Source: Acidimicrobiales bacterium (GTDB taxonomy: Bacteria; Actinomycetota; Acidimicrobiia; Acidimicrobiales; Aldehydirespiratoraceae). From it: 64,000 bases of DNA. The stretch lies in assembly GCA_033344915.1 (NCBI GenBank), contig JAWPML010000001.1, positions 408,369-472,368 on the forward strand, given 5' to 3'. Shown here piece after piece: positions 2,515-64,000 of the stretch; positions within the stretch are counted from its first letter, which is position 1; each line of letters starts with the position of its first letter. The position numbers and the translations under genes are program-made. The notes beneath the pieces are model-generated. The model did no database searches. It was not told the origin of the DNA and saw only the letters and a list, made by a program, of their open reading frames with translations.

Positions 2515-3390
2515 TCAGAGGAAGATGCGGCTGAGGTCGGCGACGCGGTCCGGCGTGAGGCACGCCTCGCCGACGGCGGCGGCGGCGATGATCAGGCCGA
2601 TCGAGGCCGTGGCCCGGTCCTCGGCGACGGCGAGCAGGTAGTCGACCTCGAAGCCCACCAGGAACGGCACGGCGCAACGGGACTCGGTGCCCGTCAGCCC
2701 CGCCGCCTCGAGCGTGAGTCGGAGCTCGCGGGTGCAGTCCACGCTGGCGACGGCCGGCGGGATCTCGTCGGGGTCGACATAGCGGAACAGGAAGGTGGCG
2801 GCCTCGGCGCGGGAGACGACGGCATTCGGCGAGAACGTGGTCGCGCTCGTTCCGGTCGTGATCAGGTTCTCCGACATCCAGGAGATGGCTTCCTGCTGGT
2901 AGCTGCGGGTGACATCACGGAACGGATGCCGGGTCACGGCGTCGGGTTCGCCGGCGTAGCGCCACAGCATCACGGCGAAATCGCCGCGGGTGATCGAGGC
3001 ATCGGGGTCGTACGTCCTCGCCGAGACGCCGGTGGTCAGCCCGGTGGCGTACAGCCAGCCGACGGGCTCCTGCTGATACGACGCCGTGACGTCGACGAAC
3101 GGGTGCGGGCCGCTCTGGGGGTTGTTCCCCAGGCTGCGGTCGAGCCGATGGAGGAAGGCGGCGACCTGGCCGCGGGTCACATCGACGTCGGGGCCGAAGC
3201 AACCGATCTCGATGCCCTCGGTGATGTCCTCACCGACCATCCACTGGACGGCTTCGGTGTAGAAACGATCCGACTCGACATCGCCGAACCCGGCGGCGGC
3301 GCCGGCGGTGCCGGTCTGCGTGGCCAGGATGCCGATCACGAACGTGATCAGGACGATGAGGCGGGAGCGCGTGCGCGTGTGACTTCGCAT
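2515..3390 (-). CDS. secreted protein with three SLH (S-layer homology) repeats and a C-terminal unknown domain
   Basis: Start chosen at MRSHTRTRSRLIVLITFVIGILA (signal/anchor). Three repeats of the F(G/V/R)DV..Y...V.W......T.G......P....TR...A.FL.R type are present. Confidence 0.8.
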   Translation of the reverse strand: MRSHTRTRSRLIVLITFVIGILATQTGTAGAAAGFGDVESDRFYTEAVQWMVGEDITEGIEIGCFGPDVDVTRGQVAAFLHRLDRSLGNNPQSGPHPFVDVTASYQQEPVGWLYATGLTTGVSARTYDPDASITRGDFAVMLWRYAGEPDAVTRHPFRDVTRSYQQEAISWMSENLITTGTSATTFSPNAVVSRAEAATFLFRYVDPDEIPPAVASVDCTRELRLTLEAAGLTGTESRCAVPFLVGFEVDYLLAVAEDRATASIGLIIAAAAVGEACLTPDRVADLSRIFL

Positions 3391-3589
3391 GATGGGGGGA
3401 ACATCCTTGGTCGAGGAGGCCGTCGGCACATCGGACCCCGCCCGCAGGAGTGCGGACCCGGGGAGTGCCGAACGGTGGACACTGGTCGATTCGACCGCCA
3501 AGGGTACCGGTAGGACCCGATTCGACTCCCGACGCGTGACCAACGTCACCTACGCTCCCGGCGTGCCGTCCCCGCCCGTCCCCGTTCCC

Positions 3590-58954: not shown

Positions 58955-59599
58955 TCAGTGTTGACCGAGGCCCCAGCGACGGATCCAGGTGTGCATGGCG
59001 ATCCCGGCGGCGACGCCGGCGTTGATCGAGCGGGTCGATCCGAACTGGGCGATGGAACACGTCATCGTGGCGGCCTGGCGCGCCTCCGGTGAGAGGCCCG
59101 GGCCCTCCTGGCCGAAGAGGAGCACGCCGTGTTCGGGAAGCTCCACCGTCTCGATCGGCACGGATCCGGCCACATTGTCGACGCCGACGATCGGGAGGCC
59201 GGCGGCGGTGGTCCAGTCGACCAGATCGGCGATGGTCGGGTGGTGGTCGATGTGCTGGTAGGCGTCGGTCATCATGGCGCCGCGGCGGTTCCACTTCCGG
59301 CGGCCGACGATGTGCACCCGGGCCGCAAGGAAGGCGTTGGCCGTGCGCACGACGGTGCCGATGTTGCGGTCGTGCTCCCAGTTCTCGATGGCGACGTGGA
59401 ACGGGTGGCGACGCTCGTCGAGGTCGGCGACGATCGCCTCGACCGTCCAGTAGCGATATCGATCGAGCACGTTGCGCCGGTCACCCTCGGCCAGCAGCGT
59501 CGGATCGAGCCGGGGATCGTCAGGCCACGGCTCGGGATGCGGCCCGACGCCCACCTCGGCCGCATCGCCGGGAAGCGACTCCGGCCCGGGCGGTGTCAC
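58955..59599 (-). CDS. SpoU/TrmH family RNA 2'-O-methyltransferase
   Basis: NIGTVVRTANAF, LLFGQEGPGLS, IAQFGSTRSINAGVAAGIAM. GTGA overlap with the htpX stop. Confidence 0.85.
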   Translation of the reverse strand: MTPPGPESLPGDAAEVGVGPHPEPWPDDPRLDPTLLAEGDRRNVLDRYRYWTVEAIVADLDERRHPFHVAIENWEHDRNIGTVVRTANAFLAARVHIVGRRKWNRRGAMMTDAYQHIDHHPTIADLVDWTTAAGLPIVGVDNVAGSVPIETVELPEHGVLLFGQEGPGLSPEARQAATMTCSIAQFGSTRSINAGVAAGIAMHTWIRRWGLGQH

Positions 59600-60924
59600 C
59601 GACCCGCTCGTCCCGATCGCCGGGGCGGGCGGGGGAGTCGGCTACGGCGGGCGTTGGTCGGCGCCATCCGATTGCGATCCGGGATGTGGTGGCGGTGTTC
59701 GGTCCAGCGCCTGCCGTCCCAGTAGCGCAGGGCCCCGTCGTCGCTCTCGGGGTCGTGGTACCAGCCGGCCGGTGCGTGGTCCGGGTCGTCGTCCTCCTCC
59801 GCGACCTCACCCATTCCCGGGAAGACGGCGGCGAGATCGACTGTGGCCAGCGCCGAGTCCGCACTCCCGGCGAGCGATGCGCTCACCCCGCGGGGTACGC
59901 CGCTGACGGCCCGATCGTCCTGCATCGTGCGCAACGACTCCGCCACGACGGGGTCGGGGCCCTCGTACGGCGGCAGGCCCTCCATCTGGCGCAGGATGTC
60001 GATGCGCTCGCTGAGCGGCGGGTGAGTGCTGAACATCTCGTTGAACTTGCGGCCGCGGGCACCGGTCTCCTGGTCGTCGGGCGACTCGATCCACAGATGC
60101 GAGGTGGCATGCGAGGTGCGTCGCACGACCGTGATGTCCGCATCGAGCTTCTCCAGGGCCTGGCGCAGTCCGCCCGGGTAGCGGGTGATCTCGACGGCGG
60201 TGGCGTCCGCCAGCGACTCGCGCGAACGGCTGACCGCAGCCCGGAGGAGGGCGGCGGCGAGCGGCGCCAGCACGGCCACCACGATCATGCCGATGAAAAT
60301 GATCGGGTTGGGACCGTTGTTCCCGTCGTTGCTGCGGCGCCGGTGCGAGGCGCCGCCGCCGGTCAGCGCGCCCCAGTAGAGCATCCGCCAGAAGATGTCG
60401 GCGATCAGGGCGATCGCTCCCGCGGTGGCGACGGCGACCGTCATCACCAGGATGTCGCCGTTGCGGATGTGGGCGATCTCGTGGGCGATCACGCCCTCGA
60501 GCTCCGCGCGGTTCATCTTGTCCATCAGTCCGGTGGTGACGGCGACCGCCGCGGTCTCGGGCTTGCGCCCCGTGGCGAAGGCGTTGGGGGACGGGTCGTG
60601 CACGACGAACACGCGGGGCTGCGGGACGCCGGCGGCGAGCGAGACCTCGGCGACCAGATTGTGGAGTCGGGAGTATTCGGAGGGGTCGGCCTCCACCGCG
60701 CGGGTGGCCCGCAACGCGATGGTGTCGCTCTGGAAATAGCTGGCGAAGGTGAGGCCGAACGACGCGCCGACACCGATGATCACGCCCACGATGCCACCGC
60801 CGAGCGAGAGCGAGATCACCGCGCCGACCACGCCGAGCAGCACGAAGAAGGCGAACAGGAGCACCCAGGTGCGGCGCCGGTTGCGCGCGATCAGGTCGTA
60901 GAAGTCGGGGCGGTCGCCGGCCAT
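59596..60924 (-). CDS. htpX: M48 family zinc metalloprotease HtpX with C-terminal DUF2510-like extension
   Basis: HEIAHIRNGD (HExxH), two TM pairs, C-terminal GWYHDPESDDGALRYWDGRRWTEH. Confidence 0.88.
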   Translation of the reverse strand: MAGDRPDFYDLIARNRRRTWVLLFAFFVLLGVVGAVISLSLGGGIVGVIIGVGASFGLTFASYFQSDTIALRATRAVEADPSEYSRLHNLVAEVSLAAGVPQPRVFVVHDPSPNAFATGRKPETAAVAVTTGLMDKMNRAELEGVIAHEIAHIRNGDILVMTVAVATAGAIALIADIFWRMLYWGALTGGGASHRRRSNDGNNGPNPIIFIGMIVVAVLAPLAAALLRAAVSRSRESLADATAVEITRYPGGLRQALEKLDADITVVRRTSHATSHLWIESPDDQETGARGRKFNEMFSTHPPLSERIDILRQMEGLPPYEGPDPVVAESLRTMQDDRAVSGVPRGVSASLAGSADSALATVDLAAVFPGMGEVAEEDDDPDHAPAGWYHDPESDDGALRYWDGRRWTEHRHHIPDRNRMAPTNARRSRLPRPPRRSGRAGR

Positions 60925-61001
60925 GGCGCAACCGTACCGGTGGCGAAGGCCCGGCCAGCGCCGGTCCGTCGCGAAGCATTGCGATCGCGTTACGTTCAGG
61001 G

Positions 61002-61553
61002 GTGATGGACGTCCTCGTCGCCCTCCACAGCGCTGCCGCGCTCCTGCTGCTGGTCGCGGGGGTGGCCAAGATCGTGCGGCCCGCGCCGACCGGTGACCTT
61101 CTCGCCACCCTGGGTCTGCCCGGCTCCGACGCCGTCGCGGTCGGCGTCGGTGGGGTGGAGACGGTCGTCGGCGTCGTCGCCCTCGCCGTCGGTGGACCAC
61201 TCACAGCCGCCCTCGTCGGCGCGTTCTACGTCGCGTTCGCCGGGATCGTCGTGCGGGCGATGCGGGCCGGCGCCGCGTCCTGCGGTTGCTTCGGTCGCGT
61301 CGACGCGCCGCCGTCGTGGATCCACGTGATCGGCAATGCCGCCCTCGCCGCGGTCTCGTTCGCCGCCATCGCCGGCGACGCGCCGGTCGAGGTCATGGAG
61401 GACCAACCGGCCGGCGGCGTGGGATTCGTCCTGGTCGTCGGTGTGCTCGCCGGCCTCGCCCTCGTCGCGTTCACCGCCCTCCCCGAGGCGATGGGTGCTC
61501 GGCGGCCCGGTCCGGCCCGTCCGGAGTTCCGCATCGACGGCGACGCGTCATGA
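61002..61553 (+). CDS. MauE/DoxX-like redox-associated membrane protein
   Basis: Four-five TM helices and the CGCFG motif (AASCGCFGRVD). ATGA overlap with the next gene. Confidence 0.7.
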   Translation: MMDVLVALHSAAALLLLVAGVAKIVRPAPTGDLLATLGLPGSDAVAVGVGGVETVVGVVALAVGGPLTAALVGAFYVAFAGIVVRAMRAGAASCGCFGRVDAPPSWIHVIGNAALAAVSFAAIAGDAPVEVMEDQPAGGVGFVLVVGVLAGLALVAFTALPEAMGARRPGPARPEFRIDGDAS

Positions 61554-62713
61554 GCCGCCGTCTGGTCGGTGCCCTCAGCCGCGTCGTCGACGGCCGCTCG
61601 TCGCGACGGGGCTTTCTCTCGAAGTCCGCCCTGGGCGCGACGGCCATGGCGGTGGCGCCGTCCGCCTACGTGTTGCGGCCCACCACGGCGCACGCCGCGA
61701 TCTGCTCGTGCGCGGGCAGCGACTGTGACTGCGGGAGTCGGTGCTGCGATGGCTACACCGACTTCTGCTGCCAGGTCACGGGGGAGAACCTCTGCCCGCC
61801 CGGCACCATCGTCGCCGGCTGGTGGAAGGCCGACGGCAGCGGGTTCTGCGACGTCGACGGCGATCCGCGGCCCCGCTACTACCTGGACTGCAACCTGCCC
61901 TGCGACGACGGCTGTGGATGCTCCGGCTCCGGCGTCTGCGCGTCGGCGTGCACCTCCGCCGACTGCCGTTGCCTCGAGGGCTGCGGCTCCCGGGCCGTCG
62001 AGTGCACCCGATTCCGCTACGGCCAGTGCAACCAGGACGTGGAGTGCGTCGGGCCGATCGCGTGCCGGATCGTCACCTGTGTCGTGCCGTGGCAGTGGGA
62101 TCCGTCCTGTGACGACACGCCGGCCACCGACAACCAGACCGCGTTCCACGACCGTGCCTGTCTGCACGAGGGCTTCACCGACGTCGCGCCGAACAGCTGG
62201 TACACCGAGGCCGTCGGCTGGGCGTCCGAGAACGAGATCACCACCGGCTACAACAACGACATCTTCGGGCCCAACGAGCCGGCGCTGCGGTCCCACCTCG
62301 CCACGTTCCTGTGGCGCTACCAGGGGAACCCGCAGGCGACGTCCGCGCCCTCGTTCGTGGATGTGCCCGCGGACAGCTGGTATGCCGACGCTGTCGCGTG
62401 GATGGCCGAGGAGGAGATCACCACCGGCACCGCGCCGGGCCGCTTCTCGCCGGATCAGGTCGTCACCCGGGCCGAGGCGGTCACGTTCCTGTGGCGCCTC
62501 GCCGGTCGTCCCCATTCGTCGGTCGAGCTCCCGTTCGTCGACGTGCCCGCCAACAGTTTCTACCGGCGGCCGGTGCAGTGGGCGTTCGAGCACGGGCTCA
62601 CCGAGGGCATCAACGGCTGGCTGTTCGGCGGTCTGCTCGATGTCGACCGGGCCCAGGCCGTCACCTTCCTGTACCGCTACGACCAGGCGTTCGGCGTGGT
62701 GGTGCCGACATGA
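61550..62713 (+). CDS. Tat-exported Cys-rich methylamine-dehydrogenase-light-chain-like domain fused to three SLH repeats
   Basis: Twin-arginine signal SRRGFLSKSALGATAMAVAP. By my count, 26 Cys in about 160 aa. The stretch ...CCQVTGENLCPPGTIVAGWW...YYLDC resembles MauA ...CDCSGGSLTNCPPGTKLATASW...YRDCC. Three SLH repeats follow (F.DVP..SWY..AV.W). Confidence 0.7.
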   Translation: MSRRLVGALSRVVDGRSSRRGFLSKSALGATAMAVAPSAYVLRPTTAHAAICSCAGSDCDCGSRCCDGYTDFCCQVTGENLCPPGTIVAGWWKADGSGFCDVDGDPRPRYYLDCNLPCDDGCGCSGSGVCASACTSADCRCLEGCGSRAVECTRFRYGQCNQDVECVGPIACRIVTCVVPWQWDPSCDDTPATDNQTAFHDRACLHEGFTDVAPNSWYTEAVGWASENEITTGYNNDIFGPNEPALRSHLATFLWRYQGNPQATSAPSFVDVPADSWYADAVAWMAEEEITTGTAPGRFSPDQVVTRAEAVTFLWRLAGRPHSSVELPFVDVPANSFYRRPVQWAFEHGLTEGINGWLFGGLLDVDRAQAVTFLYRYDQAFGVVVPT

Positions 62714-63405
62714 TCGTGCTCGTCATCGTGCAGACGATCGCGATCGCCGTGCTGGCCGTGATCGTCTTCGGCCTGCTTCGCACCCACGCCGACATCCTCC
62801 GGGCGCTCGATCGTGCCGGCGTCCCGCTCGAGGACGGCCCGGCGGCGGGCGGCGTCGGCCCGGTCCCGGTCGCGGACCCGCGGGCGAAGCCGACCGTGAG
62901 CGACGTGGTCGGGACGGTCCCCGGCGGCGGACCCGTCTCCGTCTCGGTCGGCGGCGAGGGTCACACGCTGCTCGCCTTTCTGTCGTCCGGCTGCCGGACC
63001 TGTCAGACCTTCTGGTCCGAGTTCACCGCGCCGACGCTGGAGTTGCCGGGCACCGACACCCGGCTCGTGATCGTCGCGCAGGACCCCGCCCACGACAGCG
63101 AGTCGAAGCTCGCCGAACTCGCGCCGGCCGGGGTGCGGACCGTTTGCTCCTCCGCGGCGTGGCACGCCTACGAGGTGCCCGGCTCGCCGTACTTCGTGCT
63201 GGTCGACGGCGACGAGGGCCGCATCGTCGGATCCGGCACGGCGACCGGCTGGCCCCAGGTCCACGCCCTTCTCGAGCAGGCCCTGGGTGACGAGGCCCTC
63301 GACGGATCCGCTGACGCCGCGCTCACGGCATCCGGCATCGGCCCGGGGCACCCGTCGCTGTATCCGGACGAGTCCGGCCCCGCGCTCCCCGAGGACGTCG
63401 ACTGA
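62710..63405 (+). CDS. membrane-anchored thioredoxin-fold thiol:disulfide oxidoreductase (TlpA/ResA/MauD-like)
   Basis: N-terminal TM helix, then the CxxC motif LLAFLSSGCRTCQTFW. ATGA overlap with the upstream gene. Confidence 0.75.
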   Translation: MIVLVIVQTIAIAVLAVIVFGLLRTHADILRALDRAGVPLEDGPAAGGVGPVPVADPRAKPTVSDVVGTVPGGGPVSVSVGGEGHTLLAFLSSGCRTCQTFWSEFTAPTLELPGTDTRLVIVAQDPAHDSESKLAELAPAGVRTVCSSAAWHAYEVPGSPYFVLVDGDEGRIVGSGTATGWPQVHALLEQALGDEALDGSADAALTASGIGPGHPSLYPDESGPALPEDVD

Positions 63406-63470
63406 TGGTTGCCGTGCTCGTGGTCATGGTGGCGGTCACGGCCGCTGTTCGGGCGGCCTGGTCGCCTTGA
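63405..63470 (+). CDS. 21-codon hydrophobic ORF (MVAVLVVMVAVTAAVRAAWSP) ending in TGA, in frame with the next gene
   Basis: Own translation. TGATG overlap with the thioredoxin stop. High GC3. See the finding on the in-frame TGA. Confidence 0.35.
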   Translation: MVAVLVVMVAVTAAVRAAWSP

Positions 63471-63479
63471 GGCACGTCG

Positions 63480-64000
63480 ATGCTGACCAGCATCACTCCG
63501 CTCGGTGAGCGGGGACGGGGAAATCGATGGCGGATCACCGCCGCGTGGTTGGTCGCCGGCCATCTCGTGGGCGGTGCGGCGCTCGGCGGTGTGCTCGCCG
63601 GCCTCGGCGCGCTGGCTGCGCTCGCCGCGCCGGATCTGTTCTCCGGCGGTGGCGACGACACGACCGTCGTCGCGGTCGTCGCCGCGGTCGCCGGTCTGGG
63701 CGTCGCCTTCGACCTGGCCGGAGGGCGCATCCCGGGGCGGCGCCAGGTCGACGAGCGCTGGCTGAACACCTACCGCGGTTGGGTCTACGGCTTCGGCTTC
63801 GGCGTCCAGCTCGGGGTCGGCATGGTCACGGTCGTCAACACGGCCCTGTTCGCGGCCGTGCTCGTCGCCGGCCTGTTGCTGTCGCCGCCAGCGGCCTTCG
63901 GGCTGAGCGTGCTCTACGCCGGCACGCGGGGGATCGCCGCGGTCGCCAGCGGGCGGGTCCGTTCGGTGGCCGACCTCCATCGCCTCCATCAGGCCCTGGA
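63480..64000 (+). CDS. polytopic membrane protein of unknown function (3' end outside window)
   Basis: Own translation: MLTSITPLGERGRGNRWRITAAWLVAGHLVGGAALGG...RQVDERWLNTYRGWVYGFGFGVQLGVGMVT... Strong GC3, open to the window end, not in the ORF track. Confidence 0.65.
   Translation, partial: MLTSITPLGERGRGNRWRITAAWLVAGHLVGGAALGGVLAGLGALAALAAPDLFSGGGDDTTVVAVVAAVAGLGVAFDLAGGRIPGRRQVDERWLNTYRGWVYGFGFGVQLGVGMVTVVNTALFAAVLVAGLLLSPPAAFGLSVLYAGTRGIAAVASGRVRSVADLHRLHQAL

Follow-up and report, generated by a model that had tools for sequence, protein, structure and literature searches.

The locus described here raises the question of what an exported, extremely cysteine-rich protein may be doing on the cell wall of an actinobacterium, and which machinery could fold it. 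It lies in a 64,000-nucleotide stretch (the window) of an Acidimicrobiales bacterium of the Aldehydirespiratoraceae (GenBank assembly GCA_033344915.1, contig JAWPML010000001.1, positions 408,369 to 472,368 of the forward strand), where a first-pass annotation had described one gene as an unusual fusion of a twin-arginine translocation (Tat) leader, a 26-cysteine domain resembling MauA, the light chain of methylamine dehydrogenase (MADH), and three SLH cell-wall anchors. Our analysis points, with moderate confidence, to a wall-displayed disulfide knot that would be folded by a dedicated oxidative-folding module of the Mau type, and the finding is more general than that annotation had supposed.

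The proposed architecture was confirmed in all its parts (Table 1). The SRRGFLSK motif scores 19.7 bits against a TIGR01409 cutoff of 16.7 (NCBIfam scan) and, together with the hydrophobic stretch and the AxA site behind it, points to a Tat-type leader, which by the AxA rule is likely cleaved by signal peptidase after residue 49, between AHA and A; the leader and an AYA-A(I/V)C junction are kept among the homologues. The tail matches PF00395 in three stretches (E 8.8e-27, Pfam scan), the repeat number expected of SLH-anchored proteins. All 26 cysteines of the 387-aa precursor are confined to residues 52-204, where they make up 17% of the stretch, and our count recovered the spacings reported for them, with CxC found four times, CC twice and CxxxC five times. 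The ATG at 61550 is the true start because the homologues share the N-terminus MSRxVVxxLSRVV; a TTG at 61286, which would lengthen the open reading frame (ORF), was rejected since the homologues begin at that ATG.

The cysteine-rich head is not a chance ORF, because 484 clusters match the head-domain profile at E<=1e-3 (384 at E<=1e-10; exhaustive search of 1.84 billion 50%-identity representatives), with the weakest of the individually listed matches of this search at E about 1e-38. A word-indexed search returned at least 274 clusters (90% identity) at E<=1e-3, nearly all of them from metagenome-assembled genomes of Acidimicrobiia and named 'hypothetical' or 'Tat signal domain-containing' at the source, and in a scan that covered a single genome for each species at least 576 stretches with the head domain were confirmed. 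The best 80 of these stretches, each from a different species (the 80 loci hereafter), carry almost exclusively Acidimicrobiia labels (Aldehydirespiratoraceae, Microthrixaceae, Spongiisociaceae, Rhabdothermincola). The family spans hundreds of genomes of this class, to which abundant lineages of the sea, soil, sponges and wastewater belong, and it extends to the cultured Nakamurella alba (WP_154771390.1, 'hypothetical protein'). It is thus a large family, conserved across the class, without a Pfam or NCBIfam model: neither collection gave a match to the head (PF26607, precomputed for some homologues, was not in the Pfam copy scanned), and no PDB chain was retrieved at E<=10 with the single sequence (phmmer) or with the family profile (hmmsearch).

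The head measures about 155-160 aa, and across it the homologues are 53-81% identical to the window protein. Some 35 positions do not vary, including 16 core cysteines and, among the other residues, G90-W91-W92, R109, Y111, D113, F155-R156-Y157-G158 and R173; GWW was present without exception in the 94 + 143 sequences examined. Such conservation is too high for a generic cysteine-rich spacer, the fallback that the first-pass annotation had allowed for, and that candidate was rejected. From the invariant cluster of aromatic and charged residues (WW, RYY-D, FRYGQ), a specific site for ligand binding or catalysis that faces the envelope can be suspected.

The way in which the cysteines are used can be approached from their numbers. 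Across the family they range from 16 to 28 per domain, and the count is even in 245 of 260 domains (94%); in the family alignment certain sets of them, such as C5/C10/C12/C17 (r 0.90-0.98), come and go together. Both the even counts and the correlated gain and loss fit full disulfide pairing and disfavour metal ligation, and the disulfide-knot surface protein that had been put forward as one option fits these data. Confident AlphaFold2 models of the window head (pLDDT 93.4, pTM 0.88) and of a divergent, minimal 16-cysteine member (pLDDT 93.0, pTM 0.88) were used for the structural comparisons below. Tat is a typical export route of proteins with cofactors, and a domain this dense in cysteine, with CxC and CC pairs, could in principle hold a metal or Fe-S clusters assembled in the cytoplasm before export. 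This is extremely improbable, and a metal or Fe-S domain was rejected on cysteine parity and context: the cysteines are even in number and come and go in pairs or quartets, no ferredoxin, HiPIP or metallothionein family was matched in Pfam or NCBIfam, the operon described below encodes disulfide-forming and not cluster-assembly proteins, and the nearest structural neighbours are all-disulfide proteins. The cysteines at mature positions 5, 10, 12 and 17 belong to an N-terminal four-cysteine hairpin (AICxCxxxxCxC...CC) that roughly two thirds of the family possess; it is absent as a block from a divergent LGFP-tailed group, whose members begin VCGxGxxCxxGW.

Display on the wall is a recurrent property of this head. 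Among 96 long members of the family the tails comprise LGFP (27), CWB2 (5), FG-GAP-like (5), SLH (4) and ricin lectin (2) modules, as well as DUF4214, tectonin and others. The SLH fusion is therefore not singular but one case among several interchangeable wall- or carbohydrate-binding tails. Since LGFP, CWB2 and SLH all bind the wall but are unrelated to one another, tethering of the head to the wall has been selected repeatedly, and this convergent use of at least three modules for one head argues for a conserved function in the envelope. Gram-positive surface proteins with SLH, LGFP or CWB2 modules likewise show a head on the wall by means of swappable C-terminal parts, whereas the head described here belongs to an undescribed family and would leave the cell by Tat rather than Sec export. 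A second three-SLH protein is encoded in the window at 2515..3549 (- strand; PF00395 E 1.3e-25) and shares 37% identity with the SLH part of the cysteine-rich protein, so that the organism anchors more than one protein by SLH.

The genes around the head suggest how it might be folded. A five-gene order is conserved, consisting of MauE, the cysteine-rich protein, a MauD-like protein, a MauF-like protein and p150, a protein of about 150 aa. At the 80 loci, MauE was found upstream of the cysteine-rich gene in 73 cases, the MauD-like gene in 74, the MauF-like gene in 66 and p150 in 71, and most of the missing members fall in short or truncated loci; homologues of the accessory genes mauE, mauD and mauF thus adjoin the cysteine-rich gene. 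In the window the genes overlap, with ATGA joining the stop of the MauE gene to the start of the cysteine-rich gene, and again the stop of the latter to the start of the MauD-like gene. The first protein combines a PF07291 score above the cutoff with a CxC motif, as expected of a MauE. The MauD-like protein has TIGR02661 as its only NCBIfam match, a weak one (E 5.5e-4; orthologues 2e-4 and 2.2e-5) of 19-24 bits against an equivalog cutoff of 188.6; we use the label 'MauD-like' because only the N-terminal anchor and the CxxC motif are shared with MauD and the score lies below that cutoff. The p150 proteins share the motifs GDYGSGAVE, LLEF and FCLYVV, and gave no Pfam or PDB-profile match and, for three orthologues, no NCBIfam match. 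All five genes are present in Nakamurella alba YIM 132087 (WLYK01000019.1, L087:6118-10588), where the head is LGFP-tailed and the MauF-like protein has a cysteine at its redox site, and this is a tractable cultured organism for experiments. Two gene models join parts of the operon: P0252 (624 aa) links the cysteine-rich domain to an N-terminal MauE-like part (PF07291 was found in 2 of the 96 long members), and P0273 (406 aa) links it to a p150-like part. Both could be genuine fusions or could have arisen as artefacts of reading through overlapping genes.

Taken together, these observations are consistent with the following scheme. The precursor would leave the cell through Tat and be cut after AHA, and the mature head of about 155 aa would become a compact, fully disulfide-bonded knot, its 26 cysteines forming about 13 disulfides that include the 16-cysteine core of the family. 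In a role like that of DsbB, MauE would be a CxC oxidase linked to quinone that oxidises the membrane-anchored MauD-like thioredoxin, and this CxxC protein, analogous to DsbA, would install the disulfides in the head. The MauF-like protein, of DsbD_2 type and with a single redox residue that is probably selenocysteine in most lineages, could provide a reducing or isomerising arm, whereas p150 would act in the cytoplasm before export, possibly as a chaperone of the Tat leader. The SLH repeats would then tether the head by binding wall polymer. The head would in this way be the dedicated client of a folding module in its own operon; the electron flow among the helpers is inferred.

Several parts of the scheme have parallels in known systems. 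MauE has been reported to substitute for DsbB in E. coli, acting as a DsbB-like disulfide former whose active site is CXC (preprint 10.64898/2026.03.05.709764), and the operon lends support to the recent view of MauE as a general enzyme of disulfide formation, while giving MauF a testable role. Homologues of MauE and MauD have also been noted earlier in candidate clusters for ribosomally made, post-translationally modified peptides (RiPPs) of Streptomyces. As in the DsbB-DsbA/DsbD-DsbC pathways, the proposed module would unite a quinone-linked membrane oxidase, a thioredoxin-fold carrier and a membrane protein of the DsbD family, but it is operon-linked to one client instead of being housekeeping, and none of its components is a homologue of DsbB or DsbA. 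A further parallel is with the mau clusters: MauF, MauE and MauD all have homologues here that share an operon with the cysteine-rich client, and the CxC of MauE, the N-terminal anchor and CxxC of MauD and the WSP(C/U)G motif of MauF are kept. The two differ in gene order (E-client-D-F-p150 here, F-B-E-D-A-C(amicyanin)-J-G in the canonical cluster), in the MauF homologue, which is shorter here and carries a single redox residue where MauF has two, usually a putative selenocysteine, and in the extra conserved p150, which belongs to no known family. The trio known from MADH maturation would thus also serve a very different cysteine-rich Tat client.

Whether the head is itself related to MauA was addressed by sequence and by fold. 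It lies outside PF02975, the family of the light chains MauA and AauA, which neither the window protein (E<=1, Pfam scan) nor any of the 96 long members (E<=1e-3) matched. With hhalign against a 117-sequence alignment of the MauA family, 13 columns around CPPGT were aligned and no others, with a probability of 7-8% and P of 0.004-0.005; 4 of 400 column-shuffled queries equalled the score of the real query, and enlarging the query by 260 family members gave no better match. In HMMER cross-scoring with MauA, real sequences were slightly enriched over shuffles, yet none scored above the best shuffle. The CPPGT...W match that had been drawn by eye was nevertheless recovered by hhalign, and the MauA string quoted for it is accurate, the Paracoccus denitrificans MauA sequence being 100% identical to PDB 1mg2_B. 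Foldseek against 350,542 PDB chains ranked light chains of MADH or aromatic amine dehydrogenase (AADH) as 7 of the top 8 matches of the first model, and for the second, that of the 16-cysteine member, matches 1 and 3 were light chains of the type that carries tryptophan tryptophylquinone (TTQ). The scores of these TTQ light chains are not significant (E 0.23-2.1, probability 0.08-0.21, TM 0.22-0.39, rmsd 7-13 Å; the best for the two models E 0.23-0.82), and the second model brought no gain in significance.

The head resembles the TTQ light chains (MauA/AauA; PF02975, TIGR02659) in its long Tat leader, in what would be a small all-disulfide domain, in the co-linear pattern C...C-x-DG...C(C)...CPPGT...W...C...(Y)xDC of its N-terminal half, in their place as best, though not significant, Foldseek matches of both models and in the adjacent MauE, MauD and MauF homologues. 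It differs in having 16-28 cysteines across the family against 12, about 30 extra residues and a fusion to wall-binding modules, whereas 120 MauA homologues are mostly 170-190 aa long (86-212) and contain PF02975 only. The structural ranking and the neighbouring accessory genes speak for the likeness to MADH light chains first proposed; no match to PF02975, by profile or by fold, reached significance. On balance it is more likely than not that the N-terminal half of the head is distantly related to MauA. It is rather unlikely that the two are unrelated, in which case CPPGT...W and the Foldseek ranking would reflect convergence of small disulfide-rich folds, and the Mau-like genes would be generic actinobacterial disulfide machinery that was recruited for a new cysteine-rich client. 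The hhalign probability of just 7-8%, the HMMER shuffle that real sequences never beat, Foldseek probabilities of 0.08-0.21 with TM at or below 0.39, the wide occurrence of MauE without MauA and the low score of the MauD-like protein would all agree with such an origin. It would have to account, however, for the same small family heading a ranking of 350,542 chains for two different models, for a co-linear match over several cysteines, DG, CPPGT, the tryptophan and the next cysteine, and for the co-occurrence of three mau accessory homologues, of which MauF is not a generic family.

A further question is whether the head could carry a quinone cofactor of its own, as the first-pass annotation had also suggested. 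In a relaxed hhalign run, which gave an extended, low-confidence alignment (mature numbering is precursor numbering minus 49; the MauA numbering was checked), window and MauA residues pair as C16/C29, D18-G19/D32-G33, C24/C38, C33-P-P-G-T/C46-P-P-G-T and, with very low confidence, W43 (precursor W92)/W57, the quinone-bearing tryptophan, and C51/C61; precursor D67 thereby falls on MauA D32. MauA W108, the tryptophan that completes the TTQ cross-link, falls in this alignment on a variable position, residue E165, and the sole invariant tryptophans of the head are W91 and W92, with W181 present in 68%. The quinone-bearing tryptophan would thus have an invariant counterpart if the low-confidence alignment is correct, and the cross-linking one has none. 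In addition, tblastn with Hyphomicrobium queries found no MauB, MauG, amicyanin or MauJ in the window or in loci L001-L005 (E<0.1), nor at any of the 80 species loci (E<=1e-4, loci only). Because there is no second invariant tryptophan and these four proteins are absent from all 80 loci, the protein is not a subunit of a methylamine or aromatic amine dehydrogenase, and the head probably carries no TTQ.

A self-contained quinoprotein, that is, a wall-bound extracellular oxidoreductase with a tryptophan-derived cofactor on W91/W92 (like cysteine tryptophylquinone, CTQ, or a novel cross-link) formed without MauG, is improbable on these data. It would explain the invariance of GWW in the 94 + 143 sequences, a number of invariant polar residues larger than the fold requires, the low-stringency placement of W92 on W57 and D67 on D32, the TTQ subunits among the top structural matches and the use of Tat export, which would suit a cofactor-loaded protein. 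Yet that placement comes from a very low-confidence alignment, the second TTQ position is variable with no further invariant tryptophan to replace it, the even cysteine counts leave no cysteine to spare for a thioether, and the conserved operon contains no MauG, no LodB/GoxB-type flavoprotein and no QhpD-type radical-SAM maturase. A further comparison is with QhpC, the gamma subunit of quinohemoprotein amine dehydrogenase, a small cysteine-rich subunit with CTQ and thioether cross-links. The head is likewise small and rich in cysteine and would be heavily cross-linked (the tryptophan-derived quinone being a feature of QhpC), but it has no Pfam match, its cross-links would be disulfides and its operon lacks QhpD, QhpE and QhpG. 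Quite improbable, too, is a lineage-wide actinobacterial system in which a selenocysteine-containing MauF, MauE and the MauD-like protein would build a wall-displayed extracellular redox enzyme of the MauA superfamily, without a heavy chain and with a MauG-independent tryptophan cofactor on GWW.

The wall-displayed disulfide knot with its Mau-type folding module is thus the reading that we prefer, and several points weigh against it. The match to MauA is insignificant by sequence and by fold (none in Pfam, NCBIfam or PDB, hhalign 7-8%, Foldseek E 0.2-0.8), and that of the MauD-like protein is far under the TIGR02661 cutoff. MauE is a generalist, since only 10% of MauE-bearing species have MauA (preprint 10.64898/2026.03.05.709764). 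Cysteine parity and context are the sole grounds for the disulfides, Tat export is awkward for a protein that needs oxidation outside the cell, as it is with MauA, and the function of the head is a guess.

The MauF-like gene is of independent interest besides the cysteine-rich protein, as it probably encodes a new membrane selenoprotein with a single selenocysteine. The protein starts at ATG 63405 and reads MVAVLVVMVAVTAAVRAAWSP-U-GTSMLTSITPLGER, where U stands for TGA, in one continuous frame. BLASTP relates it to MauF of Hyphomicrobium (E 1e-3 with the fragment in the window, and between 1e-7 and 1.6e-9 with orthologues), and the cysteine form of N. alba gave E 3.4e-12 in an alignment that covers WSPCG; one orthologue matched DsbD_2 in Pfam (E 5e-5), and NCBIfam has no model for the protein. 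Across 71 loci, the codon at the WSPCG site is TGA in 65, TGC in four and TGT in two; the six loci with a cysteine codon include those labelled Microthrixaceae, and WSPCG is likewise the form in N. alba and in canonical MauF. TGA is the ordinary stop of neighbouring genes, which argues against a general reassignment of the codon. Two hairpins, GAUGCU-N4-AGCAUC and CCGCUC-GGN-GAGCGG, lie directly 3' of the TGA and resemble a selenocysteine insertion sequence (SECIS). Pairing holds in 94% of the hairpin cells and in 32-45% of those of controls with slid partners, compensatory changes occur in four hairpin pairs, and the observed covariation was reached by none of 500 shuffles. In the cysteine forms the helices are degraded, one retaining 3-5 of 6 pairs and the other mostly 3-5 of 8; in the N. 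alba peptide MLTSI, for example, a synonymous serine codon (TCG instead of AGC) breaks helix 1. The alternation of UGA with cysteine codons and the covarying downstream hairpins, lost in the cysteine forms, make up the textbook signature of selenocysteine. Two other gene models were rejected: a true stop at TGA 63468 after a 21-aa peptide, in view of the continuous frame, the orthologous cysteine codons and the hairpins downstream, and a start at ATG 63480, since the frame runs from ATG 63405. Gene callers split the gene or start it at that downstream ATG.

Rfam gave no SECIS match for the hairpin region, and the window contains no tRNA of any kind, including tRNA-Sec. Selenocysteine machinery has been reported for Actinomarinales, another order of Acidimicrobiia (preprint 10.64898/2026.04.03.716425). 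In a review of prokaryotic selenoproteins, the DsbD-type entries are those of the rhodanese/DsbD-fusion family only (PMC13188914). That protein, TsoB, similarly has selenocysteine within a DsbD-type membrane redox domain, but it carries a rhodanese part and a UxxxxU motif, whereas the MauF-like protein has no rhodanese, a putative single U in WSPUG and a place in the MauF lineage. With the clean phylogenetic split between probable selenocysteine and cysteine forms, the redox residue of MauF becomes directly testable.

Table 1. Features of the operon around the cysteine-rich SLH protein (window coordinates, except for p150).
Feature	Position	Strand	Basis or remark
MauE-like membrane protein, 183 aa, CxC motif SCGCFG	61002..61553	+	PF07291 E 3.5e-15, 56.9 bits vs cutoff 27
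Cys-rich SLH protein gene	61550..62713	+	ORF, 387-aa precursor: Tat leader, Cys-rich head, 3 SLH repeats
Predicted Tat signal peptide, residues 1-49	61550..61696	+	TIGR01409; predicted cleavage between AHA and A
Twin-arginine motif SRRGFLSK	61601..61624	+	
Cys-rich head domain, residues 50-205, 26 Cys	61697..62164	+	conservation, AlphaFold2 model
Three SLH repeats, residues ~206-387, wall anchor	62165..62710	+	PF00395
MauD-like thioredoxin-fold protein, 231 aa, N-terminal membrane anchor, CxxC motif SGCRTC	62710..63405	+	weak TIGR02661
MauF-like membrane protein	63405..64000	+	extends past window end; BLASTP to MauF
In-frame TGA, candidate selenocysteine codon	63468..63470	+	site of Cys in MauF WSPCG
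SECIS-like element, two RNA hairpins (63479-63494 and 63496-63514)	63479..63514	+	pairing, covariation
p150 orthologues, soluble, ~150-175 aa	L003:11398-11862, L002:10611-11063, L005:7959-8462, L087:7471-8004		beyond window end

Lastly, the divergent neighbours upstream of the operon, at 58955..61200 (- strand) in the window and at L003:6391-8267, encode a peptidase of the M48/HtpX type, which carries DUF2510 at its C-terminus, and a SpoU methyltransferase, a pair that is syntenic in the window and its closest relatives.

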